Virus record (IMG/VR): IMGVR_UViG_3300032294_002710 | Location: 1 to 64,000 of that record | Direction: 5' to 3' (one strand) | DNA: 64,000 nucleotides | Source: a virus | Shown: one piece after another, positions 3,001 to 60,582 of the stretch | How the letters are laid out: each line of letters begins with the position of its first letter | How positions within the stretch are numbered: the stretch's first letter is position 1 | Position numbers and translations under genes: made by a program | The notes under the pieces: model-generated | What the model saw: only the letters and a program-made list of their open reading frames with translations | Told to the model about the DNA's origin: nothing | The model's database searches: none

Positions 3001-3260
3001 TTGGTGGTAGCTCAAATACTGTAACTAATAAGTCCGACTCAAGATTGAAGAAGATAATTAAGAAATTAGGAGTGTCAAGTTCAGGTATCAATATTTATCT
3101 ATTTAGTTATAATTTTGATCCTACTACTCTTTACCAAGGTGTAATAGCTCAAGAGTTATTAAATACTGAATTTGAAAGTGCCGTACATATCGATAAGAAT
3201 GGAATTTACTCTGTAGATTACTCTAAAATAGATGTCGAATTTAAAAAAACATTTGCATAA
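3..3260 (+). CDS. Large helical repeat protein (tape-measure-like) with C-terminal S74-type intramolecular chaperone domain; 5' end truncated by window
   Basis: Frame is open from base 3 to the ATG at 51. 13 copies of a G-x-[YFW]-x-K-[FYW]-P-S-x-x-W motif about 55-60 aa apart. C-terminus SDSRLKK...YQGVIAQEL...VDYSKI matches the peptidase S74/ICA chaperone pattern. Confidence 0.55.
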   Translation, partial: KDWINSSISIIGKFSLMAIGLAFALPLIILGGVSILAVAGMIWLMDKVFSKGEYKKWPSDKWINGVSHVISKFSKLLQTIRKELGFGDLVLGAIKLLGTVYTIKTIDDVLKKGEFEKFPSKKWNDGVSYTLRSFMDLMKDKSFLTVISEKIGSLLGGGLDDVAGIIVKIDKKLSQGEFKKFPSSEWNKGISSSLKSVMDLMQNNSLLSSIGNKIGDMFGGGLTGTAKTILEVDRILSQGTYTKFPSSDWSKNVLNTLMAFKSASGGGGVVSNIVSAAGSAISAGIDFISSLFGGDQPNQSAPSSSRGLVEIAEEVKNVSLKISSGKYDVFPSQSWLTSILNTFSTFRMISNLTSKLDTTSILLVSDSIVLTSLKMSSGSYTKYPDSKWVKSVTKVFIDFTSLLKKLSSSALSTSIGMMMVNNLSKVILGVDQNFNKGKFNKYPSDKWIVSVFNVYDKFSKLLSNVGKNIVSNTIGIKSLSQVTKAIISIDTDLSKGKFNKYPSDKWIMSIQSTVKKFTDLLSTTSKNIGVLLLGSTSIKMLIKSILDTDKSISSGKYLKYPDIKWINGIKKVFSDFISLLNNINKSISLPTLYISQSKIKSIVDFILLIDKKLGLGKFQKWPSDNWIKKTISSIQSYGDLIMNVDKKYPISKIFTGTKKGKMIVEMILWVDKTIDKGSYKKWPEQIWLNKTSNAILKFGDLAVAADKRFSSLRLMFGLKKVRDISDTIRHVSLALDKGKYTKYPSSEWASAVPKAISQFMSIPFKGLIGSFMDSMFGPSEDDKKSQLGKIVDLMLYVDKKFQAGNWTKFPTVQWVNGTILALQKFKDIVGLLSFSSLKDKMFSYFGVKSPIISAVSNIEKLANSFSKLSSSMKSFSDTIKEIDNEKLAAIRSLSTNVVMLSLMDPEQFDQMMNKLEERAGIFNDLIKDFEYKKEEAQKTTGTAVGPNNKAAKSTPMKLDTKDLSQKMDVMNAILGDIASVVGSRGTLKTYLNKIKDDTTIGGSSNTVTNKSDSRLKKIIKKLGVSSSGINIYLFSYNFDPTTLYQGVIAQELLNTEFESAVHIDKNGIYSVDYSKIDVEFKKTFA

Positions 3261-3278
3261 AAAATTCATATAATTTGC

Positions 3279-3707
3279 ATGAATATTTTTAAGAAAATAA
3301 GACTTTATAGAGAATATAAATCATTGATTAAAAAAAATCGAGTTAGGTTAGAGTCTGATTTTGGAATTAGAATTGATAGAGCTAACAGAATATATACTGT
3401 TCTAAATATTCCAGAAGAAAGCTTCGGAGAGCCATATAACTTGAGAAAGGGTGACATCGATATAATTTCTGAAAGATTTATTAGAGAATATGTATCTAAA
3501 CTTTCGATGTTTCTTAATGAGATAGGATTATCAGAACTATATGACTTTTATGAGCCCATAAAAAAAGTAGACAAATATTCTTATTTGATAATTTTTGGAT
3601 ATAAGCCTTTCAATTCGGTTGAATATAGTAGATTCATTTGGTTTAGACTAATTCCTATTTCTTTGGTTATTTCGTTAATATTAACTCTTCTTTTCATTTT
3701 AAATTAA
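3279..3707 (+). CDS. Hypothetical protein with C-terminal transmembrane helix
   Basis: 142-aa ORF with hydrophobic tail LIPISLVISLILTLLFILN. Confidence 0.6.
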   Translation: MNIFKKIRLYREYKSLIKKNRVRLESDFGIRIDRANRIYTVLNIPEESFGEPYNLRKGDIDIISERFIREYVSKLSMFLNEIGLSELYDFYEPIKKVDKYSYLIIFGYKPFNSVEYSRFIWFRLIPISLVISLILTLLFILN

Positions 3708-3752: not shown

Positions 3753-4178
3753 ATGAGTAAGTTTTATGAAATATCAGAAGATACGAGGAAGGAATTTTTT
3801 GATATCTTTAATAAGAAAAGCTTTCCATTGTCTTTAAATTTTCAGTTTATCGGTAGTGAAAGTCAGAAAAATCTAATTAAAATATCTAAAATATCTGATC
3901 AGTTTTCATTCTTGATGAATAAAGATCTATTAGTATCAATTAATGAGGATTTGATGAGTGTGTTTGATAAAACATCAATCACGATTCTCATCGAACAAGA
4001 GATTGATAAGATTAACATGGATATTAAATCCGGTAAAATTAAAATGGTAAAGCCAGATTTAACAACATTTTCATCAATCATATCTAAGTATGGTGTTGAA
4101 AAAGTTGCTAAGGCAAATCAAGTAGAAGAATTATATCATCAACAAGTTAGTGATGGTAATGAAGAATTTATAGTATAA
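3753..4178 (+). CDS. Phage metallopeptidase-like fold, catalytic HExxH lost
   Basis: ILIEQEIDK...KPDLTTF...IISKYG resembles the putative phage metallopeptidase family pattern (HELxH...PD.EEF...YG), but the His residues are absent. Confidence 0.35.
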   Translation: MSKFYEISEDTRKEFFDIFNKKSFPLSLNFQFIGSESQKNLIKISKISDQFSFLMNKDLLVSINEDLMSVFDKTSITILIEQEIDKINMDIKSGKIKMVKPDLTTFSSIISKYGVEKVAKANQVEELYHQQVSDGNEEFIV

Positions 4179-13521: not shown

Positions 13522-13870
13522 ATTTTAAGTTGTCAAGAAATTCTTTTTCATTGGGTTTCAATGATTCGATTCCATATGTTGAGATTTTCTCAAGAATGGT
13601 ATCTAAATCCAATACTTTTGGTTGTTTAGGTACATCAACTGAAACCATCTCTGATAAGTCTTTTGAAAATTCGTCTGTGAAGCGAACTGTATCATCCTTC
13701 TTCATTGTGAAGGCAAATATTTTCATAGTGTCTTTGTTAATCCAGATTTTTGCAAATCCTTGATTTTTTGTCGATAAGAGAACTTGATATTCAAATCCAT
13801 GAATATCACAAACTTCTTTCAACTTAATATGATTAAACATTCTTAAATCTATACAAATGGTGTTGTTCAT
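13520..13870 (-). CDS. Hypothetical protein with C-terminal DUF6576-like helical hairpin
   Basis: LDTILEKISTYGIESLKPNEKEFL resembles the C-terminal domain of Bacteroidota rhomboid proteases. Confidence 0.5.
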   Translation of the reverse strand: MNNTICIDLRMFNHIKLKEVCDIHGFEYQVLLSTKNQGFAKIWINKDTMKIFAFTMKKDDTVRFTDEFSKDLSEMVSVDVPKQPKVLDLDTILEKISTYGIESLKPNEKEFLDNLK

Positions 13871-13955
13871 ATCTCTTATTTTATATAAATATACGAATAA
13901 TATATTGATTTGTCAAATTTATTTTTTATATATAAGAAAAGTTTTAAAAATATTT

Positions 13956-16900
13956 ATGAGAAAAATATTAACAAGAAAGGAGTATTTATCTGAATTAACT
14001 GAAAAGTATTATACCAGTCATACTGGATATAGTGTAATAAATGAAGAAGCTCCTATGGCTAATGATATTCCTTGGGGTGACTCACTTGTTGGTAGATTAA
14101 TAAACTCATTCGCTAGAAAATCTAAAATAGCCTTTAATAAAAGAAGAATAAGTGGACTAGTTACTGGATTGAAGGCTTTATTTGAGGAGATGTTAGTAAC
14201 TGGAACCATTCAAATGCCTGAAGAAAGTCTTAGAAGAATTGAGACATCAAACTTACTAGGTATTTTAGTAGAACAAGTTGAATCTGGAGAAGATGTTAAT
14301 GTCTTGATTGACACATCAACACAAATAAGAGAAAAGGTAATAGATTGGAACCCTGATAATAAAGATGTGATGATTAAGGCAATTGATGACTTTTTGGAGT
14401 ATCTAAGAGGACTTAAAACAGGTGATTCTGTAGATGATGAGACACCTGAAGAAGAAGGTGAGAGTCAAGATCCAAATAAGATATTTTATCAAAATTCTAG
14501 AAACCTATTACAATCGGTAGTTGATTTGCATATGATGATCTCACAAAATGTTGTTAGAATTGGTGGTGGTCAAGAATCCTATGATAATAAAATTAATGCT
14601 GCCAAATCTAGGTTAAAAGTTGGTAGTGAATATATTTATACGAATTCTAAGGGAGAAAAGATTAGATGTATGCTATTGAGTTTGAAAAATCAGATTCAAA
14701 GAAGTGCTGATAAAAAATGGTTAACTAAAGACGATATTATAGGAGATAAATTGAACTCTGATCAAGCTTGTGTTGTTTATAAGAGAGATAAAGATGGTAA
14801 TGATGTTCAAGACTATAATAAGGTATATAATAGTCAGGTTGTTGAATTATTAAAACTTTACCCTATTGGTGGTAAAGAGCCTGGTAAAGTAGAAAAGCCT
14901 GGTGAGAATGTATCTACAAATTTTAATAAAGAAAAGTATTTAGATTTAGAAAAGAAATACCTTTCTTCTAAAAACTATGAGATTCTTAAAAATCTTATAA
15001 AAATGGGTGGACAAGCTGTTAATGTATTTAATGCTAAAGATGATAAGCAGAATGTTAAGTTTTATACAGATAAGACAAATAACTATTTATCTTCATTGAT
15101 TAAAATGCAGGCGAAGAGCTACGGTATAAGCACTCAAGTTACTAAAGATATTAAGCAGCCAAATGGTACTACTATAAAGAAAAATACTGGTCAAAGTAAA
15201 GACATAAAGACTTTAAAGGATGAAATATCAAAAGCTTCAAAAGGTTCTTGGTCTGTAGATCTTCCTTTAGGTAAGTCATCTGGTAAAGTATCACAACCAC
15301 CTTCTGGGGTTGGAACTATGCAAAAGGCTAGTTATGATATCGAGTTCGACTTCGATTATATTTTTGAAGCAGAGGCTAATTTACAAAAAGAGGAATCTCA
15401 AGCAAAAAATGCTTGGAAAAAAATTGTAAATTCTTATAATCAATCAAAAATATCTTCTTTAATTCCAGAAATTGAAAAATTATTGAAAGTCTCTATTAAG
15501 GACGGTAAAGATGAGTATAAAAAGGCTAAGAGTTTAATAACCACACTTTGTAAGCAAATAGTTCTTAATAAATCTACTGTTGGTAAGCCTATATCATTTG
15601 AAGATTTAGTTAAAGAAGATTTAAATATTAATGATACCTCTAAGTCTATATCACTTATGGGAAGAGTTATTTTATCTCTTAAAGAAGATATGGGACTTGT
15701 CGGTTCATTTGGTAGTGCTATTAAGCCTTTAAAAACTTTTATAACATCTTTTGGAGAACTTGAAAAAAATATTTCAAAAATATCAACTGAAAAGAAGGAA
15801 TCGCTTCATAGATATACAGATTTTTCTATAATATTGGAAAGAAATGAATTTTCTGAAGATATTAAAAACAAATTTGATGAGATATTTACTAATGATATTA
15901 AGACTTACTTCGAAATACAAACTAGTGAAGTAGATGAAATAAAAAATTCAGCTAAGGAAACACCTGGTGGTGAGTTGTTATTTACAACAAGTGATCCTAT
16001 AATTGAGATTGTTAGATTATTTCACAGAGCAAATAGAATACACACTCCTGGTGTTATACCTTCTGGTAGAACAGGTGGTAAAGTATCAAACTCAGTTTTT
16101 AGAGAATATGAAGACTTAGGAGCTGGTGGTGGTACACCTGAGGCACCTGGTAGAGGACCTTATAGAAATATTGAACTATATGATTCGTGGTTTAATGCCG
16201 TTCAAGATATTTTATCAGATACAAAGTATCGTCCAATTTTTAGTGAAAAAACCGTTTTCCAGTTTAAGAATGAAGAGACTGGAGGAGAAGGTGATAAAAT
16301 TGAAAAAGGTGGTAAAATATTATTAAGATTTATTAATAATTTACTCTCAGATTCTAAGATGTATAATGGTGGTGCTATTAATACTTTTATAGAGGAGTAT
16401 TTTAAATTAAAAGGTGGAATTTCTAAAGAGAAACAAGCATATCCTTCATATAAAAAAGATATAGATGTAAACGAAGACAATTCCGAAGGTGTTGTTCTTA
16501 CTGATGTTAAGTATGTTAAGTCATCGCCTGCTGGGTCTATTAAAGATATCAATACCGATGATTTATATAAGTTATTTATTGGACCAGAAAGTGGTGATAA
16601 TGAAAATTTGGCATTCAAATTGGTTGGTAAGACCGATGAGGGTAAAGATTTTCAATGGTATTGTATATTTAAGGAATATATAAATCAATATCCAGTATTT
16701 ATTTTCTCATTGGGTAATTTTCCTTCTGATCTATCAAGGATAAATGGAATACCAAAATCAACAATACCAACAACTGCTTATCTAGCTTCGTTGCCGAAAT
16801 TCACCGGAGCTACTCAAAGACTAAAGGTTGGTGAGAAAATTGCAATAAGAATGGTCGATTTAAAGACACCACAGCAAGAAAAAGTAAATTCTGGTAAGGG

Positions 16901-17054
16901 TAAAGATCGAATAGAAGTATCTATTACTAAACTGGAAATACTATGTAATAACAATTCTGAAAAATATTTAGAACTAACAAACTATTCTCCAAGTTTGAAG
17001 TCGGTTATATCTAGTGGATACGATGCTGCTAAAAATTTAGTTACAAGAAAGTGA
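13956..17054 (+). CDS. Large probable internal virion protein
   Basis: Likely start MRKILTRKEYLSE at 13956 after a TATATA motif; several internal [ILV]-x-E sites. Confidence 0.55.
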   Translation: MRKILTRKEYLSELTEKYYTSHTGYSVINEEAPMANDIPWGDSLVGRLINSFARKSKIAFNKRRISGLVTGLKALFEEMLVTGTIQMPEESLRRIETSNLLGILVEQVESGEDVNVLIDTSTQIREKVIDWNPDNKDVMIKAIDDFLEYLRGLKTGDSVDDETPEEEGESQDPNKIFYQNSRNLLQSVVDLHMMISQNVVRIGGGQESYDNKINAAKSRLKVGSEYIYTNSKGEKIRCMLLSLKNQIQRSADKKWLTKDDIIGDKLNSDQACVVYKRDKDGNDVQDYNKVYNSQVVELLKLYPIGGKEPGKVEKPGENVSTNFNKEKYLDLEKKYLSSKNYEILKNLIKMGGQAVNVFNAKDDKQNVKFYTDKTNNYLSSLIKMQAKSYGISTQVTKDIKQPNGTTIKKNTGQSKDIKTLKDEISKASKGSWSVDLPLGKSSGKVSQPPSGVGTMQKASYDIEFDFDYIFEAEANLQKEESQAKNAWKKIVNSYNQSKISSLIPEIEKLLKVSIKDGKDEYKKAKSLITTLCKQIVLNKSTVGKPISFEDLVKEDLNINDTSKSISLMGRVILSLKEDMGLVGSFGSAIKPLKTFITSFGELEKNISKISTEKKESLHRYTDFSIILERNEFSEDIKNKFDEIFTNDIKTYFEIQTSEVDEIKNSAKETPGGELLFTTSDPIIEIVRLFHRANRIHTPGVIPSGRTGGKVSNSVFREYEDLGAGGGTPEAPGRGPYRNIELYDSWFNAVQDILSDTKYRPIFSEKTVFQFKNEETGGEGDKIEKGGKILLRFINNLLSDSKMYNGGAINTFIEEYFKLKGGISKEKQAYPSYKKDIDVNEDNSEGVVLTDVKYVKSSPAGSIKDINTDDLYKLFIGPESGDNENLAFKLVGKTDEGKDFQWYCIFKEYINQYPVFIFSLGNFPSDLSRINGIPKSTIPTTAYLASLPKFTGATQRLKVGEKIAIRMVDLKTPQQEKVNSGKGKDRIEVSITKLEILCNNNSEKYLELTNYSPSLKSVISSGYDAAKNLVTRK

Positions 17055-24629: not shown

Positions 24630-25736
24630 ATGAAAGTTTTTATTACAACAGATTGGCATTTTGGTGTGTATGTCAATAATTTAGATAAATGGTTAAATAT
24701 GATGGAAGATTATTTCTATAACTTCTTCATCCCATTTCTTAAAGAAAATGCTAAAGAAGGTGATGTATTAATACATTGTGGTGACCTTTATGATAACAGA
24801 ACTTCTATTCCTATCATCGCATCATACAAAGCTGAAAAAATACTAACTGAAATATCTAAAATACTTCCAGTTCACTTGATTGTTGGTAATCATGATCTTT
24901 GGAATAAAGGATCTAATGATATTAATTCTGTGCGTCTTTTTAATTTTGTTGATAATATTAATGTCTATACTGATACAACCACCATTGAATTATTTGGAAA
25001 CAAATTGATATTGATGCCTTGGATTGAGAAGAGATTGGATATGATTAAACAGATTCAATCAAACTCTGGTGATTATCTATTCTGTCATAGTGATTTAAAT
25101 GGGTGTAGGATGCATTTAAATTCTGTCGCTCATAGAAATGCTGATAAAATAGATGTTGATGAGTTTAATCGATTTAAACATGTATTTTCTGGACATATAC
25201 ATATAAGACAAACTAATAAGAATTTTACATTTATTGGTTCACCATATCAAATGGATAGAAATGATATGGGTGATCAAAAGGGTATCACAGTATTAGACTT
25301 AATAAGTGGAAGTATTCATTTTGAACCAAATACATATTCTCCGGTATTTAAAAAAGTTCAAGTTGTTAATGAAGATGATGTTGAACTAATAGAGGGTTTA
25401 AAAAACTCAAAGGATTACATTGATCTTGTTATTTCCAATAATCTTCTTATAAATAATAGAAAGCTTAGAAGAAAGTTAGAAACTATTTTAGAGACTGGTA
25501 ATTTTGCATCTGTTGAATATTTAGATGATATAGTTAAAACTGAAAAAGAGAAGAAAGAAAAAGAATTAACCGAAGAAGAATTACAGATTTCTATTCAGTT
25601 AGAATATGAGGAATTCATCAAAGGTTATATTGAGAACCAAAAGTATGAAAATTCTGATTTCAGAGATGGTATGTTAGGTGAATTCAATGAGATTATAAGG
25701 ATTTATAATGAGAATTATAAGGTTAAAAGTGAATAA
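24630..25736 (+). CDS. Mre11/SbcD-like recombination nuclease (T4 gp47-like)
   Basis: Metallophosphoesterase motifs DWHFG, GDLYD, GNHD, FSGHIH, GSPYQ. Confidence 0.92.
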   Translation: MKVFITTDWHFGVYVNNLDKWLNMMEDYFYNFFIPFLKENAKEGDVLIHCGDLYDNRTSIPIIASYKAEKILTEISKILPVHLIVGNHDLWNKGSNDINSVRLFNFVDNINVYTDTTTIELFGNKLILMPWIEKRLDMIKQIQSNSGDYLFCHSDLNGCRMHLNSVAHRNADKIDVDEFNRFKHVFSGHIHIRQTNKNFTFIGSPYQMDRNDMGDQKGITVLDLISGSIHFEPNTYSPVFKKVQVVNEDDVELIEGLKNSKDYIDLVISNNLLINNRKLRRKLETILETGNFASVEYLDDIVKTEKEKKEKELTEEELQISIQLEYEEFIKGYIENQKYENSDFRDGMLGEFNEIIRIYNENYKVKSE

Positions 25737-25769: not shown

Positions 25770-26621
25770 ATGAGACATTTAAGAAGGTTCGAAGAATTGG
25801 ACCTTGATAAATATAAAAATTTTCTTGATAAGTATCAAAAGACCGGATACATATCTACCTCTTCTATTAAGAAATTAAAAGAATGGGGTTTAGATATTAA
25901 AGACTTTTCTCATATCGAGAATCAAGTTGTAAAATCCCTTGATTTCTTTAGAGATGGTGATGTTCATTTGTTTAATGATTATTTCATGGAGGTAAAAGAT
26001 AAATATCCGTATATATCATCTTATTTTTATTACTCATTAGATGTTACTCCTAAGAGCGCAGTAAAGTGGTCTAGTTCATTAGATAAATTTAATATTGTTG
26101 TCTCGATGGATGAGAATAATTTACCATCTAAAGATTCTACTAAAATAGATACTAATACTAGTGTTATTGATAAAGTTATTTCTGGTATAGAGGGTGCTCG
26201 TCAAAAAGAAATTGAAAAGCGAAAAGAACAGATGGATTCTTTCATGAAAAGAAGACCCGGAGCAGATGATGATTGGGTTAAGGGTTCCTATTTAAGAGCA
26301 AAATCTGAAAATTTTATAGAAAATTGCACTATATCTACAATTATAAATCTTCAAGTATTTTTGAATTTAAATGATTATGATCATTATTATAATCTAGGCG
26401 AAGACGAATGGGAATCCTATGATAAATATCTTAGAGAATTGAGAAAAACGGTGGTTGATGATATCGAATTAAATTTAAATTCAATTCTTAAAACATATTT
26501 TTCATCAATTGGACATTCTAATATTAATTCTAAAATAGAAAAAGGAGGATTTGGATGGAGAGGATTTTACGATCCTTCAAGTGATATTGTTATTTTTAAT
26601 ATAAAATGTGAACTAAATTAG
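25770..26621 (+). CDS. Hypothetical protein with N-terminal capsid-targeting-like peptide
   Basis: MRHLRRFEEL; AATATATA 5 nt upstream. Confidence 0.6.
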   Translation: MRHLRRFEELDLDKYKNFLDKYQKTGYISTSSIKKLKEWGLDIKDFSHIENQVVKSLDFFRDGDVHLFNDYFMEVKDKYPYISSYFYYSLDVTPKSAVKWSSSLDKFNIVVSMDENNLPSKDSTKIDTNTSVIDKVISGIEGARQKEIEKRKEQMDSFMKRRPGADDDWVKGSYLRAKSENFIENCTISTIINLQVFLNLNDYDHYYNLGEDEWESYDKYLRELRKTVVDDIELNLNSILKTYFSSIGHSNINSKIEKGGFGWRGFYDPSSDIVIFNIKCELN

Positions 26622-28961: not shown

Positions 28962-31900
28962 ATGCAAAATTTGATATTCTTTGATAAAGAGGGAAATCCA
29001 TTAAACTTTTATTATAATGAGACCGTTGAAAGATATGAGGGAGATATTTTATTTCCTGTTAGTTCAAGTGATACCTTTAAAACTCAATCACTCTATTTAT
29101 TTGAAAAGATACCTGCTTTTGAGTATGAGAACAATCCAGATTTGAGTCTAAGAAAATGGCAGTTGTTTAATGAATATGGATTTCATTTTTATCAGGGAGT
29201 TGCAACTCAGTCTGTAACTAAAATTGAGCCGGTTAATCAAGAGGCCGATTATTTTTCTAAGTGGATTTATGGTAAGAATATAGAGTCTAAGTTTAAATTA
29301 GGAACTTTTGTAAGAATAAACGGTAGTGTGTTTGAGTTTACTGACTCAAATAGAGTTTACTGCGTGGTTGGATCTAAAAAAAATGCAATATTAATTATTT
29401 CAAATGTTGATAACCAATCATTTCATAGTATGTACTCAGGATCATATGGTCTTACCTCAAGTTATGATGGTGTTAGTATAAAAGGAGTTAATATTCTTGG
29501 AATATACAATTACATAACTCCACAATTGAGAGATACACTTTCTATTTGGAATGAGCCAACTTTTTATGATAGATTATATGAGTTTAGAAAACTAAATATT
29601 ATAAATACTGAAAAAAATGATAGTTATAGAAAAACTGGAAGATTTGACGATGTTGATGTAGTTACAATTAAAAATCCTGAGTTGAAAGATAATATTCACT
29701 ATGAATATGATCTATCAAAAAACTCACTTCCCGATAATAGTACCCTCATAATAGAAGTTATAACAAAAACCGATTTGCCAAGAGTTTATAAAGGCGGATT
29801 GTCATTTGAGTCGTTGAGTAAAAGATTGAATTTTTTAGATCCTATTCCTGATATAATTAAACCAGGATTAGAATTTAAAGTTTCTAATTCTGCGCTTAAT
29901 ACTGACTTTTATAAAGTTAGTCCTATTAAATCATTTTTAGGAAATGTAAATCTTACATATTATGCTACTGGTAGTCAAGTCATTTATAATAATGATATTT
30001 ATCAATGTATTCAAGCATACACTTGGTCAGGTGCGACAGAATCTGTTGCTCCTATTGGATCATTACAATCTGACCTATATTGGGGACCGCCTACATATTT
30101 ACCAATAGATCCATCATCAATATCCGGTGGAATAGTCGATGAGTTTCTTGTTGGTGGTGAGGTTTACTTTACAAATGATAGATTATATTTTACACAATCT
30201 TTCACACAATCTTCTGAGGTAACTTTAGCTATAGCTGCTGAGAGATTTAAGAGTGAGTTTAAAGTTCTTAAAATGGATCTTTATTATGAAGATACAAAAT
30301 TAAAGGCTGATTTAATATATCCATCAAAGTATGCAATTGTTAATTACTATTATGATCAATTGAGTAGCACTTATAGTATAGGTGCGGTAAAAAATGTTTA
30401 TGAGAAGTGTATAGAAACATATGAACCACTAGTTAGGGAGTTTAATTATAATATTTCAAGTAATTGGAATTATAATATAGTATTTACAGATATTGATGAG
30501 TTTGGTATAATTGTAAAAATCAACAAACTGGTTTATAAAGAGAGAGTGGCTTGGATATACTCTTCTGGACTTGTTGATTTACAAAGAACTATTGATAGAA
30601 CACTTAGAAATTGGTTAACAAGACACTTTTTATCACTAAATACACTTGGTATTTTACCGACTTTAAATACAGTTGGATACTCATCTGTTTATTATAATTC
30701 TATTACTCTTAGTACTGACTTTCCGAATGTTCCTATAGATTTTTCCGTTCAGGTTGGAACGACTGCAAATTTTTACATCGAACACACAGTTGTAGTATTT
30801 AATACAATTGGAAAATACTTAACAGTTAATATTAATGGAAGATCTTATGAAGAAGCTGCGGTTATGGATTCGATAACTGGATTGACTGATATTGCTACTA
30901 CATTGGCAAATTGGACTGAAAGCTGGGCTGAAACTATAAATGACTTTGGAATCTATGTTTCTAATTCCGCAAGTTCATTAAAATTTAATGTTAAGAAGCA
31001 AACACAAAGGGTTAGTTTGGAAATAAATGTTGGAATATCCAGTCTTCCAGGAATTGAAAACTATCAAATAATTAAAAAGTATAGTGGTAATTTAGGAGCT
31101 TTGATAACTTCTAATGAGATTATTTTAGCAACACAGAGTGCATCATTAGAAGAGGTTGGTTTTGCAACCGGACAAGTAATTGGTATAAATAAGACATATT
31201 ATCCCCTACAAAATATTGAGTATAACTCATTATATTTAAATCCGGATGTTATAAATCTTAGTTACGAGGGTCCTTTTTGGGGATTAACAGATTCTTTATG
31301 CAATAGTTCGGCTTTCACAACAGTTGCTTTTACTATAGGATTCGGTCAAACAGGTTGTCCACCATCTTTCGCACCGAGTTTGATTAAAGGAATGTATGAT
31401 AAAATGGCCTTTACTGCTAGCTTTAGTATTGAGTACATATTTACAAATTCATATATACCATATACACATGATGGTGTGCCAGGAATGGTCGACTTGACTT
31501 ATGTTGAGCCTGTTAATTCAATTTATGTTCTTGGTGAGAAGTTAAGAGTTTACAATTCAAATTATGCAAATGTTTTAGGAGACATTGAAATACCTGGATT
31601 GACTAATAGTATTTCACTTTGTTATAATCATGTTTCAAGCTATTTATATGCTTTGAGTAAAAATGCATTATTTCAAATCGATCCATATATTAATTTACTT
31701 ATAGCATCATATTCTTTTGCTTCTAATGCTCATAGTATTCAATTGAATTCCGATAATGGTGATATTTACATATCATTTGAAAATTCAACTGATATGTATG
31801 TGTACCCTGTTAATCAGGATACACCTGAGACAATTAATGTTAGTCCATATTATACTTATAATATGGTATTTAATGATTTTGAAAAAGATATGTATGTTAC

Positions 31901-34900
31901 TACTAATGTTGCTTCTGTTCTTAGAATTGATGGTAGTAATAGAACAATAGATACAACATATCCAATTTTTGTTGCCACTCATTCAATCGCTTATGATCCT
32001 GAAAATGAGGCTGTTTATGTTATGGAATCTGGTGGTAATTTAAAGAAAATTGATAACAACTCGGTAGTTGACATACCATCTATTACAACTGGAACTTTTG
32101 ATAGTTTATTATTTAATAACTTAACAAGTACGATGAATGTATCAAGTGATTTAGGATTTAGTTCTATATTAGTTGATAATGATGTTATAAATTTCACATC
32201 ATCTCCAATTGGATATGGTAATCAATCTTTAAATCAATTTGATGGTGATATCTATTTAGGTATTGACTCTCAGATTTTAGTTATAGATTCAAATACAGGA
32301 CAGACTAAGAATCTTCAGCCTTTTTCTGGTGGTTATATAACTAGATTGATATATAATCCTGATAGAAGAAGCATTTGGGCTATTCAACCATCTACAAAAA
32401 ATGTAGTTGAAGTTCAAGTACAGTTAGGTAGTTATTTTACATTAGAAACTACAGTTGGCACACAATCTAATGATAATTTCTATGGCACTCTAAGTCCTGA
32501 ATATATTGATAGAGATTATCTTTGGTTAAATGTTAGAGAATATATTAGAAGACCAAGAGCTAATTTTAATGGTGGTGCTACAGTTAGCTTCTACTGGAAA
32601 TGGTTTTCAGATAATGTTCCTCAGTTTTTTATGTATGACTTTTCGGGTAGTCAACTAACCACAACAGGTTTACTTGCATATACTGGTCCTAAACCATTAC
32701 CAACAGTTCATTTAAATTCAAAACCAAATAGAGATATAACAAAGACGAGTCATCCAGAATATCAGCAAACAATTTTTAATACTATTGAATACGATCTTGA
32801 GTTTATAGACGATAATGATGACATTAGTATAGTTCCTGAGCCAATAGAATTATTTTTAGGATTTAATTCACCGGATGAAGGTGCTCTTAGAAGCGTCCTT
32901 CAGCTTTATAAAAAAGAAGATGTCGATTTCACTATATCAACCACTTCTATTAATAATGATGTTATAACATTTGAGACCATTGTTGATGAACTTACATCAG
33001 AAAGATATGGTAAAATAAGTTTAAGTGATGACTCTACGAGTCTTTTCACAACTAACTCATTTGGTGATTCGAGAGGTCTTAGAGTTGGTCAGCATATCGC
33101 TATTTTTATTAAAGATATAACAAATTCAAAAAAACAATATATTTCCAATAATAATGGATACTTATTAAAGATTAAGAGTGTTTTCTCAAGAGAGATTCTA
33201 GTTGATTTCTTTAAAGAGGTGGATAGTTTAGATTTTGAAAAAACAATAATTTCTAATTTTCCAAAAACTGGAGAAACCACTTATTTATCTACAAGGATAT
33301 TAGTTTGGAATCAAGAAATTGGTCGATTTAATGTATTTGGGCAAACAGAAATTGAGGATGTTAGATTTCATACTGAGTTAAATAATGTTGGTAAACTAGT
33401 TTCATCAGATGATGTCTATATTTTTAAAGAGTATGATATTAAAGAAGAAGGAATAGATTGGGACTATCTTAACATGAAGAGAAAGGAAATGTTAATGGTT
33501 AAGAATTTAATTTTTCCATATATTGGTAGTTATAAGTCTATTATTAATGCTATTAACTACTTCGGATATAACGATTTGGAGTTATATGAATATTATAGGA
33601 ATGTTGATATTGAGTCTGAGAACTACTATAAATTATTTAAAGTTGAGGTTCCTGATATATTTGATAATACTGTTGAAGGATGGAAAGACAATGATTTTAT
33701 AAAACATCTTTTTCCTAATGATAAGTATCAAGATACTAATCTTTTTAATTTAACTTATAGAATAACTGATAAAGAGGGTAATAATATATTATACTATACT
33801 CTAGAAGAGGTTCAGAAAAAATTACAAGGACTTAAATATTGGTTACAAAAGAATATTATACCAATAACACATAAGATACTCGATATAACGGGTAGAGCTG
33901 ATTTTGTAGGAGATACTGTAATAACACACCAAACAAGAGATGCCAGTATTTTCAATATAAAACAGAGTTACACACCAGTGACCTTTGATATGAATGAGGC
34001 TTATTTACTACCTGTTAATAGTGGATCTACTGTATACAATTGTGTTTTGGATTTTTATATACTAGGTACATCATCTGCTTTATTACCAGACTACTACACT
34101 GTGGATATAAGAAGTTATGAGATCTACAGAGAATGGTATGCTTTTAGAAACTATCAAATAGGTGAGAGAGTTGTTTACTATGATAAATTATATGAGTCTG
34201 TAATATCTAATAATAAGACAAACAATCCAAGAAAGTTTGAAAACGCTGAAACTTGGTCATTTGGAACATCTTATAAAATTGGTGATATTGTTAAGTATAA
34301 TAGACTAATTTATGTTTGGAGTGGACAATCTGGGGCTACATCATCAACAGTTTCTCCTGTTTTAGATGAAGGAGTTGGTAGTAATTGGTTAAATATAACA
34401 GAGTGGAAGGAAATTGATTTAGTGCCTGTGGATAGAATTTCTGAATATAGACATATTTCTAATCTTTATCCTTTTAACTTTACAATTGACTCAAACATCA
34501 CACCATATTTAGTTATTGAGGTCACCTCTGATAATGGATATGGACTTACTTATAGAGATAGAAAGAATTTTGAGATAAAGGGTATTTTAGATATTCAAGA
34601 AATTGAAGCCTTTTCAAACCTTACCACAAAGCAATATAGGGATGCTACTTTACCAGTTGTTTCAGTCGATCTTGATAAGGTTCCTAATTTAGAGCTTTTA
34701 AGATACTCATATACATCCGGATTCTTGGATCAATATGGTAATTATACTGATAGACCATATGTTACAAAATCGGGAGATGTTGTGTTTCCTCGTATTAAAC
34801 ATGGTTTCCCTTATAAAGTTGAGAATAATTCAAGTTTTGTGGTTAATAATTTTACTGTAGAACTTGATGGTGACTTCATTTATATGCAAAATCCATATGT

Positions 34901-35612
34901 AATAACTGATATTGGAAGTGCAAATATCATGGGTAAGAATCTTAATTGGTATGGTAATCTAATGCCAGGTGCGACTGTTTCATTTGAAGTTAGAGCTGAT
35001 GTTACAAGAGGTGGTAAGGCTAATTGGAGACAACCAACTAATACATCAAATAATGAGGCATTGGTACCTGTTAATTATAGAGTTGGTGCTAAATTAACTA
35101 CTGGTATTAATTATGGTGCTAGTTATTCAACAATTGGTAGCCTTAATCCTAGATATAGATATGTATATAATAGATTAGCTTCACTAAGTAGTAAGCCATT
35201 ATTTGCCACACAATCGTTTACTGCTATGTCAATTTATGGTGGTCCTGGATATGTTCATAAGTTTATTATGTCCACATTCTCACAAAATGGAGTTGATATT
35301 ATTAGAAGTAGTGATAATGTATTTGATGGATCTAATTTTGGTAGCTTGGCTGATACTTTAAATCGAGCAGTCGGTTCTTATGGATACTTCTACTATCAAT
35401 TAAGAACAAGTTCTACATTGCATGATCCTAGAATATTGTTTAGTACTTATTATCAAGCAATTAGTTCTACACAATCTTATCTATTAAGATATAGAGATGT
35501 TACATTACAGGAAACTGATGGTCCTAATTTGTTTGCTGATACTACTGGATTTGCATTGGGAACAAATTCAACAGTCGGTGCTTGGACAATAGATCAATAC
35601 TATTACCCATAA
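28962..35612 (+). CDS. Large baseplate wedge/structural protein with beta-propeller and CBM5/12-like modules
   Basis: 2216 aa directly upstream of gp25. PYIGSYKSIINAINYFG wedge-like motif, YNP/YDP propeller repeats and W...Y..G..V.Y...Y modules. Confidence 0.6.
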   Translation: MQNLIFFDKEGNPLNFYYNETVERYEGDILFPVSSSDTFKTQSLYLFEKIPAFEYENNPDLSLRKWQLFNEYGFHFYQGVATQSVTKIEPVNQEADYFSKWIYGKNIESKFKLGTFVRINGSVFEFTDSNRVYCVVGSKKNAILIISNVDNQSFHSMYSGSYGLTSSYDGVSIKGVNILGIYNYITPQLRDTLSIWNEPTFYDRLYEFRKLNIINTEKNDSYRKTGRFDDVDVVTIKNPELKDNIHYEYDLSKNSLPDNSTLIIEVITKTDLPRVYKGGLSFESLSKRLNFLDPIPDIIKPGLEFKVSNSALNTDFYKVSPIKSFLGNVNLTYYATGSQVIYNNDIYQCIQAYTWSGATESVAPIGSLQSDLYWGPPTYLPIDPSSISGGIVDEFLVGGEVYFTNDRLYFTQSFTQSSEVTLAIAAERFKSEFKVLKMDLYYEDTKLKADLIYPSKYAIVNYYYDQLSSTYSIGAVKNVYEKCIETYEPLVREFNYNISSNWNYNIVFTDIDEFGIIVKINKLVYKERVAWIYSSGLVDLQRTIDRTLRNWLTRHFLSLNTLGILPTLNTVGYSSVYYNSITLSTDFPNVPIDFSVQVGTTANFYIEHTVVVFNTIGKYLTVNINGRSYEEAAVMDSITGLTDIATTLANWTESWAETINDFGIYVSNSASSLKFNVKKQTQRVSLEINVGISSLPGIENYQIIKKYSGNLGALITSNEIILATQSASLEEVGFATGQVIGINKTYYPLQNIEYNSLYLNPDVINLSYEGPFWGLTDSLCNSSAFTTVAFTIGFGQTGCPPSFAPSLIKGMYDKMAFTASFSIEYIFTNSYIPYTHDGVPGMVDLTYVEPVNSIYVLGEKLRVYNSNYANVLGDIEIPGLTNSISLCYNHVSSYLYALSKNALFQIDPYINLLIASYSFASNAHSIQLNSDNGDIYISFENSTDMYVYPVNQDTPETINVSPYYTYNMVFNDFEKDMYVTTNVASVLRIDGSNRTIDTTYPIFVATHSIAYDPENEAVYVMESGGNLKKIDNNSVVDIPSITTGTFDSLLFNNLTSTMNVSSDLGFSSILVDNDVINFTSSPIGYGNQSLNQFDGDIYLGIDSQILVIDSNTGQTKNLQPFSGGYITRLIYNPDRRSIWAIQPSTKNVVEVQVQLGSYFTLETTVGTQSNDNFYGTLSPEYIDRDYLWLNVREYIRRPRANFNGGATVSFYWKWFSDNVPQFFMYDFSGSQLTTTGLLAYTGPKPLPTVHLNSKPNRDITKTSHPEYQQTIFNTIEYDLEFIDDNDDISIVPEPIELFLGFNSPDEGALRSVLQLYKKEDVDFTISTTSINNDVITFETIVDELTSERYGKISLSDDSTSLFTTNSFGDSRGLRVGQHIAIFIKDITNSKKQYISNNNGYLLKIKSVFSREILVDFFKEVDSLDFEKTIISNFPKTGETTYLSTRILVWNQEIGRFNVFGQTEIEDVRFHTELNNVGKLVSSDDVYIFKEYDIKEEGIDWDYLNMKRKEMLMVKNLIFPYIGSYKSIINAINYFGYNDLELYEYYRNVDIESENYYKLFKVEVPDIFDNTVEGWKDNDFIKHLFPNDKYQDTNLFNLTYRITDKEGNNILYYTLEEVQKKLQGLKYWLQKNIIPITHKILDITGRADFVGDTVITHQTRDASIFNIKQSYTPVTFDMNEAYLLPVNSGSTVYNCVLDFYILGTSSALLPDYYTVDIRSYEIYREWYAFRNYQIGERVVYYDKLYESVISNNKTNNPRKFENAETWSFGTSYKIGDIVKYNRLIYVWSGQSGATSSTVSPVLDEGVGSNWLNITEWKEIDLVPVDRISEYRHISNLYPFNFTIDSNITPYLVIEVTSDNGYGLTYRDRKNFEIKGILDIQEIEAFSNLTTKQYRDATLPVVSVDLDKVPNLELLRYSYTSGFLDQYGNYTDRPYVTKSGDVVFPRIKHGFPYKVENNSSFVVNNFTVELDGDFIYMQNPYVITDIGSANIMGKNLNWYGNLMPGATVSFEVRADVTRGGKANWRQPTNTSNNEALVPVNYRVGAKLTTGINYGASYSTIGSLNPRYRYVYNRLASLSSKPLFATQSFTAMSIYGGPGYVHKFIMSTFSQNGVDIIRSSDNVFDGSNFGSLADTLNRAVGSYGYFYYQLRTSSTLHDPRILFSTYYQAISSTQSYLLRYRDVTLQETDGPNLFADTTGFALGTNSTVGAWTIDQYYYP

Positions 35613-46137: not shown

Positions 46138-46577
46138 GCAGCTTCATTATATTCATAATACGCGTAGAATCCAATTATGAATTTTTGTTTTACCTTTACT
46201 CCCATTATTATTGGATTTATTTGTAAATCTATTCCAGAATTAATTAAACTTTTTAATAGTTTACCATTTGGTGTTTCTAATATCTCAATATTGAGTATTA
46301 TCTCATTTACTTCTAAATGACTATCAATAATAAATGATATTTCATTTATTCTAAAGGCCACATTTTTAAGATTAGTTGTTGATGAAAATATTTCAGAAAT
46401 TCCTAATTCGCACAAGAGTGGTGGATTAATTTCAGTTATATCAAACTGACATTTTTTACCTAAAATAGAGTTTATTTTTATTTCTCTGTATATTGATTTA
46501 TAGTCTCTATACTTTTCAAGTAAATATTTAAAACATTCAAGATTATATCTTTCCTTTAGATTAACATTAGTTATCAT
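46134..46577 (-). CDS. Catalytically dead prohead-protease (gp21)-like paralogue
   Basis: CELGIS..NLKNVAFRI..EILETPNGKLLKSLINSG follows the gp21 pattern GELDHP..NL..VSH.I..KILDTP.G..K.L...G, but lacks the catalytic His and the SSR Ser. Confidence 0.5.
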   Translation of the reverse strand: MITNVNLKERYNLECFKYLLEKYRDYKSIYREIKINSILGKKCQFDITEINPPLLCELGISEIFSSTTNLKNVAFRINEISFIIDSHLEVNEIILNIEILETPNGKLLKSLINSGIDLQINPIIMGVKVKQKFIIGFYAYYEYNEAA

Positions 46578-46935
46578 TTTGTGACTTTTTCTTTTCAGAA
46601 ATTGTTAGTTTCATTTTCTTGAAAAGTTTTTTATTCTGAATTGGATATTCTACTCCATAGTTTTTCTGAAGTGTCTCTTTTCTTTTCGATTCTGAGCACT
46701 TTCTACAGTAGTAGATGCCCCAGATATTTCCATACTTAATATAATTCTTGTAGATTACATCTTTTTTAATTCCACATCCGTCACATTCACAGAGTATTTT
46801 ATAGTGAGATCCTTTTGATAGCAATTCTGTTGGTATTATTAAATCATCTCCAATAGAAATATCATATCCTAAATTTTCAAAATATGAAAAATTAGACTCA
46901 TTGATTTTGATTTTAATTTCTCTAGTTATGATCAT
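46567..46935 (-). CDS. Zn-ribbon protein resembling the N-terminal part of homing endonucleases
   Basis: CECDGCG, YCRKCS and KRKETLQKNYGVEYP; no nuclease domain visible. Confidence 0.5.
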   Translation of the reverse strand: MIITREIKIKINESNFSYFENLGYDISIGDDLIIPTELLSKGSHYKILCECDGCGIKKDVIYKNYIKYGNIWGIYYCRKCSESKRKETLQKNYGVEYPIQNKKLFKKMKLTISEKKKSQNDN

Positions 46936-58588: not shown

Positions 58589-59047
58589 ATGAACGCTCAT
58601 AAAAAATTACGAGAACTTGGTTTTAAAAAGACCAATTTTTATAAGCCAGGTTATGACCCTGAGACTTATGAATCTTGTATGCTTTTAGATGAGTATGATA
58701 CTAAATGGGAAACAGTTAATGGTAAAAGAGTTTCAGTAAAAGTTAATAAGATACATCCTAAATCAGATTCATTTTGGGTTTTAAAGTATAATGAAAATTA
58801 TATACTTTGGTGTTATGTGAAGTCACATCAAATAGACAAAATATGGGTAGAGAATAAATTAGGAAAGAGTCGAAGTAAAAGTAGGTTGTTATATTATGGT
58901 GTTGGTTCGGGTGATGATAGGTTAAAAATGGTTTTTGATTATAATAACAGGGAATCAAATCCATTACAAGGTAAAAATCAAATTATGAATTTACTACCTA
59001 AAGAAGTAAAAAGAGATTTCTTACTTGAACAACTTTTTGGATTTTAA
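58589..59047 (+). CDS. Hypothetical protein
   Basis: 152 aa; TATATTTG element 5 nt before the ATG. Confidence 0.55.
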   Translation: MNAHKKLRELGFKKTNFYKPGYDPETYESCMLLDEYDTKWETVNGKRVSVKVNKIHPKSDSFWVLKYNENYILWCYVKSHQIDKIWVENKLGKSRSKSRLLYYGVGSGDDRLKMVFDYNNRESNPLQGKNQIMNLLPKEVKRDFLLEQLFGF

Positions 59048-59163: not shown

Positions 59164-59841
59164 ATGGAACAAATCATTATAGAAATAAGAGCCGCTGAAG
59201 GTGGACAAGATTCAAAACTACTTGTTGAAGATTTAAGAGATATCTATCTCAAAACTGCTAGAGTTAATAACTTTGATTATAAAGTTACTAATCGTGATGG
59301 ATTTACATCAATTTGACTGACTGGTCAGGGAGTTAAATCACTTTTTAAAAACGAAAGTGGTCCTCATCGTTGGTTAAGAATTCCACCAACTGAGAAGAGA
59401 GGTCGAACACAAACTTCAATTATCACTGTTGCACTAACCGATCCTAATGATAAATTAGATTTCAGGTTTAATCGAAATGAGGTTATAAAACAATATACTC
59501 GTAGTAGCGGAAAAGGTGGACAGAATGTTAATCGTAGATCTACCTGTGTTCAATTAACCCATGTACCAACTGGTATTCAAGTTAAATGTCAGGATCAAAG
59601 AGATCAAAGTAAAAATGAGGAATTAGCTTGGATTCGTATTGAAGAGAAACTTAGAATAATACATGATGATTCTCAAAGTAAGACTATTTATCAAAATCGT
59701 TTTGATCAAGTTGGTACTGGTTCAAGATCGGATAAAAAAAGATCATATAGGATCAAAGAGAATTTGGTAGTTGATCATGAGACTGGTAAAACCTGCACAT
59801 TTACTGACTTCTTAAAGGGAAGAATTGATTTATTGTCCTAA
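59164..59841 (+). CDS. Class-I peptide chain release factor (RF1-like, lacking domain 1) with in-frame UGA at codon 51
   Basis: Manual translation: MEQIIIEIRAAEGGQDS...GFTSI*LTG...ESGPHRWLRIPPTEKRGRTQTS...SGKGGQNVN...LTHVPTG...RSDKKRSY...LLS*. PxT and GGQ motifs are intact and both halves are in one frame. Confidence 0.88.
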
Positions 59842-60582
59842 TATTAATTTAAACTCCTCTTCATTTTTAAAACTTTTTTTGGTATTATTTTTCCTTTTGG
59901 TTATACAAAGGTTATCAAGTGATGATATTTCTTCTACTTGATAACCTTTTTTAAATCCTTCAAAGATAGAAATCTTGTGGTCTATTGTTGGATATCTTTC
60001 ATCGTTATAGTTAAGATTGAAGTTTATTTTTATATCTTCTCCGTCATAATAATCAAGTCCGTTCCATTCTTCTATTAGTTTCTTCTTATTTCTTTTGGTT
60101 AGATTGTCAATTAGTTTTCTGTATCTGATGTATTCACTCTTTTCGTCTTCAGATATAAAAATATTATTAATTTGAAAGTAATTATTTACAGACTTTGATA
60201 TTTTATCTTTAATTTCTGGATTATCCTCATAGAGTTTTAAAATAGAGTTTCTTATTTTTTCTCTAACTTCTGGTTTTTTTGCGGGATTTTTACCTCCAAT
60301 TTTTGAATCAGAGTATCTCTTTTTCGACTCATCACTTCTTACTTTACCTTTACAAGATAGACCGATTTTATCTTTATGTTCTTTAGATAATTTTTTTCCT
60401 TTGTGTGACTCAGATAGATTTTTCTTATGATCATCAGAAAAAATTTGTCCTTTTTTTACTTCTGATTGCTTTTTGTAGCCACATTTTCTACAAGAGGAGT
60501 TTTTATCATTTGCTATATTTAAAGAGTCCTTTGACTTATAAGTTATCTCGACAAAACATAATGGACAATTTCTTTTATACAT
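59830..60582 (-). CDS. HNH homing endonuclease with NUMOD3 repeats
   Basis: HKKNLSESHKGKKLSKEHKDKI NUMOD3 repeats; TIDHKIS...NLCITKRKNN HNH-like core. Confidence 0.75.
   Translation of the reverse strand: MYKRNCPLCFVEITYKSKDSLNIANDKNSSCRKCGYKKQSEVKKGQIFSDDHKKNLSESHKGKKLSKEHKDKIGLSCKGKVRSDESKKRYSDSKIGGKNPAKKPEVREKIRNSILKLYEDNPEIKDKISKSVNNYFQINNIFISEDEKSEYIRYRKLIDNLTKRNKKKLIEEWNGLDYYDGEDIKINFNLNYNDERYPTIDHKISIFEGFKKGYQVEEISSLDNLCITKRKNNTKKSFKNEEEFKLILGQ

Follow-up and report, generated by a model that had tools for sequence, protein, structure and literature searches.

A phage RF1-like release-factor gene with an in-frame UGA: candidate programmed readthrough in a family marked by recoding

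The stretch of DNA analysed here (the window) comprises 64,000 nucleotides, positions 1 to 64,000 of the virus record IMGVR_UViG_3300032294_002710. At 59164-59841 on its plus strand lies a 225-codon reading frame for a predicted RF1-like class-I release factor (RF) that is interrupted by a single TGA at codon 51. This in-frame TGA is far beyond chance, being unique in the contig and kept in relatives. We propose that programmed UGA readthrough in a weak UGA-C context makes a functional phage release factor and that the site would serve as a sensor of a fall in RF2, a reading to which we assign a probability of roughly 0.55. An original prediction, made from the sequence of this stretch alone, had proposed such a readthrough-controlled gene; the sequence comparisons described below indicate that the trait is family-wide and that the types of recoding are interchangeable, which goes beyond that prediction. 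The gene is laid out as follows.

59164..59841, plus strand: whole gene, 225-codon frame for a predicted RF1-like class-I release factor with domains 2-4 (sequence, Pfam, NCBIfam, fold)
59164, plus strand: ATG start (sequence)
59164..59313, plus strand: codons 1-50, with the first strand, the helix with the stop-reading tip and two further strands of domain 2 (alignment, model)
59314..59316, plus strand: single in-frame TGA, codon 51, in the context ATT TGA CTG; proposed readthrough site (sequence, relatives)
59317..59319, plus strand: CTG after the stop, which gives C at +4 (weak UGA-C signal; codon usage, relatives)
59383..59391, plus strand: PPT (CCA CCA ACT), the RF1-like "anticodon" of PxT type (sequence, alignment)
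59515..59523, plus strand: GGQ motif of peptidyl-tRNA hydrolysis (sequence; G118, G119 and Q120 are invariant in the homologue alignment)
59839..59841, plus strand: TAA, true end of the gene, where a convergent minus-strand open reading frame (ORF; 59830-60582) overlaps by 12 bases

The sequence confirms that a frame with PPT and GGQ intact is broken only by the TGA at 59314-59316. The ORF list of the window shows only a 50-residue stub (59164-59316) at this place. The claim that no usable start follows the stop is also borne out, since no ORF of at least 30 residues starts with ATG, GTG or TTG in the same frame downstream of the TGA.

The source contig has 134,852 bases at about 29% GC, and TGA is used in it as a true stop. 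Among its 138 ORFs of at least 100 residues, 120 end in TAA, 14 in TGA and 4 in TAG (TAA ends 87% of the contig's genes), and the four window ORFs that had been named as TGA-terminated, ending at 17054, 38058, 41331 and 54743, all end in TGA. Under genetic code 11, ORFs of at least 100 residues cover 92% of the window. Along the contig, this coverage is 0.89-0.96 in each 10-kilobase (kb) segment up to 120 kb, except for the segment at 50-60 kb (0.79), which holds the release-factor gene; it is low only over the transfer RNA (tRNA) arrays at the contig end, beyond 120 kb. The tryptophan codon TGG occurs 456 times. Eight frames in the contig are long only when TGA is read through, and seven of them lie wholly inside other code-11 ORFs, so that the release-factor frame is the only one in 134,852 bases with an internal TGA outside another code-11 ORF. 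High code-11 coverage and a single unexplained internal TGA agree with the earlier view that TGA is not reassigned here, and they rule out code 4 for the contig.

A scan of IMG/VR for relatives returned 80 loci, or 70 distinct genes once identical ones had been dropped. In-frame stops interrupt 42 of these genes, all of them collinear with the window protein; another 25 need a +1 frameshift and 3 are open; recoding is therefore found in 67 of the 70. The 42 genes hold 58 in-frame stops in total (55 TGA and 3 TAG), while 22 of the 25 frameshift genes shift at CTT followed by TGA (15) or TAG (7). The stop stands at the same codon 51 in 27 distinct genes, at protein identities from 76% down to 42%. 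No locus has TGG in the codon 51 column, where sense codons encode R, K, E, Q, C, A, S, M, T, D or I; therefore, the conserved feature is the stop and not tryptophan. PPT or SPT, together with GGQ, is present in 80 of 80 loci, and relatives with UAG sites and with UGA sites show no difference in their recognition motifs.

The two halves of the gene also evolve alike. Changes at codon positions 1, 2 and 3 between the window gene and its relative L001 number 6, 1 and 12 upstream of the stop and 33, 30 and 82 downstream, and the corresponding numbers for relatives L028 and L030 are 2, 1 and 13 upstream and 17, 11 and 62 downstream. This pattern indicates purifying selection on both halves in one frame. 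Contigs from four other freshwater studies span 59314-59316, with nearby differences mostly at third positions; no change of the TGA appears among the matches listed, 28 others lying outside the list, and an absent row is no proof. A sequencing error or a private nonsense mutation, the outcome that the original prediction had named as fatal to itself, is ruled out by the conservation together with these independent freshwater contigs: the relatives keep a stop, not a sense codon, at position 51. In the protein database, 225-residue forms are found on short contigs and 155-residue post-stop forms on contigs of up to 145 kb, the former presumably called under code 4.

The family extends to published genomes. 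Five of the huge-phage records of Al-Shayeb hold members, and each has a recoding site: TGA at codon 51 in LR756502.1, at codons 43 and 51 in LR745206.1, at codons 39 and 51 in LR756501.1 and at codon 43 in LR756504.1, and cggaggggtctt TGA c at codon 38 (GGAGG-GGT-CTT-TGA-C) in LR745208.1. The homologue in LR745208.1 (L117:301-949) thus has a prfB-like +1 cassette, but four residues are missing at its PPTE loop (HRVQRT----SNGRIHSS, tblastn), and its stop-codon reading may be different. A scan of GTDB genomes added 50 loci, namely 9 with in-frame TGA, 40 that are not collinear and 1 that is open; most of the 40 show CTT TGA or CTT TAG near codon 38, and a few match only in part. These 50 genome-bin loci likewise retain the Thr of PxT. 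They lie mostly in bins labelled Myxococcota (loci L156-L205, e.g., L183, L185, L171 and L198), with others in the Minicystis rosea DSM 24000 chromosome, Thiobacillus denitrificans DSM 12475, a Cupriavidus plasmid and a Jiella genome; some of the bins are probably mis-binned phage contigs. Altogether, the recoding trait spans loci of GC 0.24 to 0.74.

A quick tree was built from 71 rows of the C-terminal part, which is free of interruptions; only its starred groups are to be relied on. The starred group that contains the window gene has 10 members, each carrying TGA at codon 51. Genes with CTT TAG C at codons 52-54 are interspersed with in-frame TGA genes, some at very short distances, and L046 and L051 adjoin L020, L028 and L030. 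GGC or GGT TGA at codons 36-37 marks a separate group, and in a high-GC group codons 34-38 hold a Shine-Dalgarno (SD)-CTT-TGA/TAG cassette; the three open genes nest within this group. The low-GC frameshift forms have no SD-like sequence before the shift site, which would fit hosts that do without SD sequences. Across the tree, the recoding type switches between close relatives and recoding itself is kept; both types even meet in single genes (L045:3001-3673 and L073:3001-3664), where TGA at codon 39 is combined with the +1 site CTT TAG C at codon 54.

The sequence that follows the stop is constrained as well. The +4 base is A (29) or C (29) at 58 of 58 in-frame stops and never G or T, and this context pattern recurs in clades with different site positions. 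Position 52 is Ile (ATH, 7) or Leu (CTN, 20) in all 27 stop-at-51 genes. Its codon starts with G or T in none of these 27, compared with 26 of the 37 genes that have a sense codon at 51, where the residue is mostly Val, Phe, Ala or TTR-Leu (26 of 37). After its TGA the window gene uses CTG, which of all Leu codons is the least frequent in the contig (53 of 3424), and of the 14 true TGA stops in the contig just 1 has C as the next base. UGA-C and UGA-A are weak, leaky termination signals in Escherichia coli, as reportedly established in work by Poole, Tate and Engelberg-Kulka. The +4 bases, the contrast at position 52 and the rarity of CTG support the UGA-C context as first proposed, and they indicate that a weak termination context is under selection in these sequences.

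The original prediction had also placed a small hairpin just 3' of the stop. The inverted repeat CTGA-ctgg-TCAG is present at 59317-59328, but RNAalifold found 0 conserved pairs from -15 to +75 of the stop across 24 homologous sites. Since no structure is conserved, the hairpin is best taken as a by-product of the Leu-Thr-Gly codons. A downstream stimulatory structure is not obligatory for a leaky UGA in bacteria. Selenocysteine insertion was considered and rejected, given that no 3' structure is conserved and that no tRNA-Sec was found at normal thresholds, the only calls being AT-rich ones at relaxed thresholds.

Several lines of protein evidence bear on what the full-length product would be. 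Pfam matches only positions 101-194 of the 194-position PCRF profile, plus the RF-1 domain. The best NCBIfam model is RF1 (NF001859; 179.9 bits versus a cut-off of 400), and since it aligns only from position 105 (positions 105-333 of 347), domain 1 is missing. The scores against the other RF1 model (TIGR00019; 174.9 versus 423.25), RF2 (116.4 versus 370), PrfH (70.5 versus 166.65) and ArfB (35.9 versus 100, residues 102-132 only) are likewise under their cut-offs. The closest solved structure is Thermus thermophilus RF1 (E 4e-40, chain residues 107-321). An AlphaFold2 model built from 41 sequences has a mean predicted local distance difference test (pLDDT) value of 87.5, with strands at residues 2-10, 38-44 and 47-54 and a helix at 15-34. 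Its best Foldseek match is ribosome-bound RF1, with a template modelling (TM) score of 0.87 and a root-mean-square deviation of 2.5 over 229 columns, compared with TM scores of about 0.80-0.85 to RF2 and 0.63 to PrfH. The product thus lacks the four-domain architecture of RF1, as domain 1 is absent, and differs from the ArfB layout (GGQ domain alone plus a tail) in having domains 2 and 4. By these comparisons it is an RF1-like class-I release factor with domains 2-4 only, in line with the domain content first described. The link to PrfH that had been drawn from the loss of domain 1 did not hold up, and identity with PrfH is rejected on the score below cut-off, the weaker fold match, the RF1-like decoding motifs and the lack of an RtcB-like gene upstream.

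The decoding motifs can be followed residue by residue. In the alignment with T. thermophilus RF1, PPT (residues 74-76) falls on PVT 184-186; GGQ occupies residues 118-120, and the SPF tripeptide of RF2 is absent, with PPT in its place. G13 and D16 align to RF1 G116 and E119 at the helix tip; L71 stands at RF1 Q181 and Q83 at H193, and T84 is kept at T194. Most relatives outside the window clade keep Q at the Q181 position. In RF1 ribosome structures, the helix tip reads the first base of the stop codon, Q181 and T194 read the third base and H193 stacks. Codon 51 aligns to RF1 V159 and falls in the middle of the predicted strand 47-54. Because the N-terminal 50 residues hold the stop-reading tip and the rest holds PPT and GGQ, neither half should work alone, and with codon 51 inside a confidently modelled beta-strand, the product would have to be full length.

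From these data we infer the readthrough mechanism, the residue inserted, the part of RF2 as competitor and the specificity of the product. Full-length synthesis would need the ribosome to decode UGA codon 51 as an amino acid. A near-cognate tRNA, with tRNA-Trp the likeliest, would do this with no help from a stimulatory RNA structure. At this codon, either RF2 would release a useless 50-residue peptide, or the near-cognate tRNA would be accepted and the factor made. RF2 is the sole release factor for UGA, so more of the phage factor would be made as RF2 activity per ribosome drops, a drop that one would anticipate in the late phase of a long infection, once host expression has been shut down. 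The site would thereby sense the termination capacity of the infected cell, and the RF1-like product would secure termination at UAA, where most of the contig's genes end. UAA is never the internal stop in clean cases, and its absence fits a need for a stop that is read by a single host factor.

A number of points weigh against this reading. The counts over relatives concern related sequences and not independent events, and the family tree is a quick tree only. The full-length protein is a prediction from sequence; RNA runs contain only 5-7% of the sequence words sampled from the locus, and contigs say nothing of expression. Many relatives carry two in-frame TGAs, through which plain leakiness would give very little product. 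An RF1-like factor that is inactive on UGA would make the device an open-loop sensor, less tidy than the feedback of prfB, and the sensed codon (UGA or UAG) tracks no visible change in specificity, which settles neither the sensor nor autoregulation. The contig is about 24% of the genome, and a decoder of UGA could sit in the remainder; in the complete huge-phage relatives, some of the tRNA matches from Rfam (out of totals such as 61 in LR745206.1 and 66 in LR756501.1) remain untyped; and several tRNA-like genes with 8-base anticodon loops occur in this huge-phage group.

A wider form of the sensor proposal is more tentative. The domain-1-less PxT family of huge phages and Myxococcota-type bins may be a sensor-and-backup system that answers a failure of host RF2 or RF1. 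Nearly every gene would then need UGA or UAG recoding, by a device that flips quickly between readthrough, +1 shifting and both, in part at one and the same codon, and the sensed stop would be one that the family's own factor does not read. That factor would be a terminator of altered specificity, e.g., for UAA only, of which the change from Q181 to L in the window clade could suggest a sign. Recoded relatives would use the same switch in a change of genetic code during infection.

The source of the contig bears on several of these questions. CheckV rates it as linear and about 24% complete, and no terminal repeat was found in it when one was looked for. By PHROG families it has a myovirus gene set (terminase, portal, major head protein, sheath, tube, clamp loader and late sigma factor). 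In the major head protein it shares 71% identity with LR756502.1 (a 642-kb phage) and LR745206.1 (a 635-kb phage), and we therefore take the contig to be a fragment of a huge-phage genome. Freshwater and lake metagenomes from several studies contain words of the locus. An SD core lies upstream of only 2 of 136 contig genes (background 6.8%), and the start regions are 52% A. Such SD-less, A-rich starts suggest a Bacteroidota-type host, an inference from what is described for Bacteroidia ribosomes (PMC10798248, in the part accessible to us). No second gene with an RF domain was found in the contig.

The search for a tRNA that reads UGA covered the contig and three complete huge-phage relatives. 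Neither a UCA anticodon nor a tRNA-Trp is present among the contig's 28 tRNAs (ARAGORN default settings, with Rfam in agreement). Relaxed ARAGORN settings gave 108 calls, mostly inside genes, and the "tca" calls among them are AT-rich and unconvincing. Since the contig is about a quarter of the genome, the absence of a suppressor tRNA cannot rest on it alone. LR756502.1, with 50 Rfam tRNA matches, has no UCA anticodon among 48 ARAGORN-typed tRNAs and 10 further Rfam matches that were re-examined with relaxed ARAGORN and hand-read folds, and there is none among the 58 distinct tRNAs of LR745206.1 or the 58 of LR756501.1. tRNA-Trp(CCA) occurs in one and two copies in the two genomes with two in-frame TGAs and was not typed in the one-TGA genome; this tally over three genomes is a hint only. 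The following unusual elements were noted in the search.

L081:4292-4377 (124292-124377 of the contig itself): tRNA-like gene with an 8-base anticodon loop, 57% GC in a 29% GC genome
L108:1501-1573, L014:1493-1569, L130:1108-1181 and L153:1444-1534: further 8-base-loop tRNA-like genes
L081:4586-4667 (124586-124667 of the contig itself): GC-rich tRNA-like element whose acceptor stem and T arm are good but whose anticodon arm is poor, called "cta" by relaxed ARAGORN and overlapping a weak Rfam match to transfer-messenger RNA (19.7 bits versus 47)
L016, L019, L020, L023, L027, L028, L030-L033, L046 and L049 (flanks), and L155:136-289: pairs of tRNA-Met along with amber suppressor tRNA(CUA) genes

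The four-base "anticodons" of the 8-base loops are cgta, a tRNA-Glu-like CUUUUCAG loop, ccta, gtag and ttac, and these tRNAs could be frameshift-reading or defective. The two elements of the contig itself are odd, and neither reads UGA. A search of the contig for a counterpart to the odd 8-base-loop tRNA of LR756502.1 gave T-loop matches only. In many relatives the tRNA(CUA) genes and the tRNA-Met pairs lie within 1-3 kb of the release-factor gene, and LR756501.1 has two tRNA(CUA); the surroundings of factor genes flanked in this way look like a code-change neighbourhood.

We weighed readthrough as an RF2 sensor against four other explanations. The main rival is classical autoregulation, in which the phage factor itself would read UGA and, when abundant, terminate at its own codon 51, like prfB but through readthrough. 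A giant-virus RF has been described with a bacterial-type autoregulatory mechanism (PMC3521657, from the accessible part of the text). Closer to the window, relatives carry the exact prfB-type cassette (GGAGG, 3 bases, CTT TGA C), though with PPT instead of SPF; UGA or UAG sites among near-identical proteins could be explained by one omnipotent factor; and L and Q at RF1 positions Q181 and H193 make the decoding pocket of the window clade non-canonical. However, the Thr of PxT, which in established RF1 structures excludes G at the second stop position, is kept in all 80 IMG/VR loci and the 50 genome-bin loci, the hidden Markov model and fold scores are nearer to RF1 than to RF2, and stop type and motif do not covary. 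We consider autoregulation unlikely on this balance. A dedicated decoder, i.e., a suppressor or otherwise unusual tRNA, possibly encoded outside the contig, through which UGA would gain a sense meaning during part of the infection, is a still less probable explanation. A partial change of code would in that case turn the RF gene on, in the way proposed for recoded phages. The decoder explanation gains from the incompleteness of the contig, from amber suppressor tRNAs next to the RF gene in relatives (including the two tRNA(CUA) of LR756501.1), from the odd 8-base-loop genes and from relatives with two TGAs, which are hard to reconcile with plain leakiness and which carry tRNA-Trp(CCA). A code-change module with RF1 in TGA-recoded Jade phages would also fit, but that module is reportedly in standard code (preprint 10.1101/2021.08.26.457843, in its accessible part). 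No UCA-anticodon tRNA was found in the three complete huge-phage relatives, and there is no other unexplained in-frame TGA in 134.8 kb, structural genes included.

In a host whose code assigns TGA to an amino acid (code 4 or 25), the gene would simply be open, and the phage would otherwise be compatible with both codes. In favour of this, GC is low, 8 of 9 TGA-ended window ORFs reach another stop within 5 codons, and code-11-compatible phages of code-25 hosts with back-up stops have been described (PMC10746230, in the part available). TAA-ended ORFs likewise often reach early stops, however, and the trait runs across GC 0.24-0.74 and through Myxococcota bins and Thiobacillus, Cupriavidus and Jiella records. 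Moreover, the relatives have zero TGG or GGN alternatives at codon 51, a +4 constraint would be pointless for a sense codon, and the SD-less, A-rich starts suggest a Bacteroidota host; altogether, we see very little likelihood in a host code of this kind. Least probable of all, and by our estimate scarcely credible, is that the gene is dead or misassembled, or that parts of 50 and 174 residues are made separately by termination and reinitiation. It is true that gene callers split or shorten the gene, that 155-residue proteins stand on long contigs and that the ORF list gives only a 50-residue stub. Against this, the exact stop is kept down to 42% identity with purifying selection on both sides, the same stop is present in independent samples, no in-frame ATG, GTG or TTG start follows it (the next codon is CTN or ATH in 27 of 27 genes), and in the model the break falls inside a beta-strand.

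Upstream of the gene lie only 116 non-coding bases, beyond which the ORF 58589-59047 (152 residues) has no PHROG family; no RtcB-like gene was found upstream. A scan for promoters and terminators around the gene was uninformative (16 promoter-like sites versus 12.4 expected, and 0 terminators), and no Rfam family reaches its gathering score in the window. The minus-strand ORF 59830-60582 runs towards the release-factor gene and covers its final 12 bases. This ORF and another on the minus strand, 46567-46935, both match PHROG 5104, and one of the two also matches a homing-endonuclease family. Elsewhere in the window, no PHROG family is matched at E 1e-5 by the very large plus-strand ORFs 28962-35612 (2216 residues) and 13857-17054 (1065 residues). 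One frame is shared by three ORFs in a row (51-3260, 3279-3707 and 3753-4178), with only TAA stops and short stop-free spacers between them, and the same arrangement is seen for 24630-25736 with 25770-26621; such same-frame runs may be chance in a compact genome.

Recoding marks 67 of the 70 distinct phage genes of this RF1-like family, and, if our proposal is correct, its use of in-frame UGA readthrough would be a rare conserved case of regulatory readthrough in the bacterial world. The system bears on how phages monitor and take over translation termination, on what a class-I factor without domain 1 does on the ribosome, and on the evolutionary exchange between readthrough and +1 frameshifting. 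There is a consequence for annotation, too: gene callers shorten such genes or use the wrong code, so that phage release factors are under-reported, and an internal stop may pass wrongly for evidence of code 4.

Autoregulation of a release factor by recoding is textbook knowledge for RF2 in bacteria, and giant viruses and plants supply eRF1-type examples. Bacterial prfB (RF2) resembles the window gene as a release-factor gene with an in-frame UGA in a weak UGA-C context, whose output goes up when UGA termination is slow, and distant members of the window family share its CUU UGA C cassette with an SD-like GGAGG three bases upstream. In contrast, the window gene has no frame shift, CUU or SD sequence, and its site lies in domain 2 at codon 51, whereas that of prfB lies in domain 1 near codon 26. 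The window protein is, moreover, RF1-like (PPT), so UGA is perhaps not its own codon. PrfH (RFH) resembles the window product as a class-I RF homologue that has lost domain 1 and kept GGQ. The window product differs from it in profile score (70.5 versus a cut-off of 166.65), in fold (TM 0.63), in its RF1-like motifs and in having no RtcB-like gene upstream. For the RF1 family, a reviewer's report from 2006 comments that an autoregulatory recoding mechanism is lacking (PMC1586002, in the part accessible).

Class-I factors RF1 and RF2 near tRNA arrays have been reported for huge and recoded phages (PMC7162821; 10.1101/2021.08.26.457843; 10.1101/356790). The accessible parts of these papers list the genes or tie them to code change, with no mention of internal stops or frameshifts, and the preprint 10.1101/2021.08.26.457843 places RF1 in a code-change module that is itself standard-coded. 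The RF2 of Lak phage, considered as a possible member, lies outside the family at about 27% identity. In the portions of the literature accessible to us, no account was found of phage release-factor genes with internal stops or frameshifts; supplementary tables (Table S2 of the Borges preprint; Al-Shayeb 2020) may list such genes. Apparently, then, a large set of release-factor genes that depend on recoding has gone undescribed.

Among eukaryotic systems, plant eRF1 is alike in that the level of the factor is tied to stop-codon readthrough, and different in that it involves nonsense-mediated decay and a stop outside the fold of the catalytic protein (PMC5397192, in its accessible part). The closest viral precedent is the eRF1-type class-I factor of Mimivirus and Megavirus, a virus release factor translated past internal stops by readthrough and frameshifting (PMC3521657, likewise in part). 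Loci L045 and L073 of the phage family also combine readthrough and frameshifting in one gene. The two systems differ in that the giant-virus factor is eRF1-type, belongs to eukaryotic viruses and was tested experimentally, whereas the phage family is known by comparison only.

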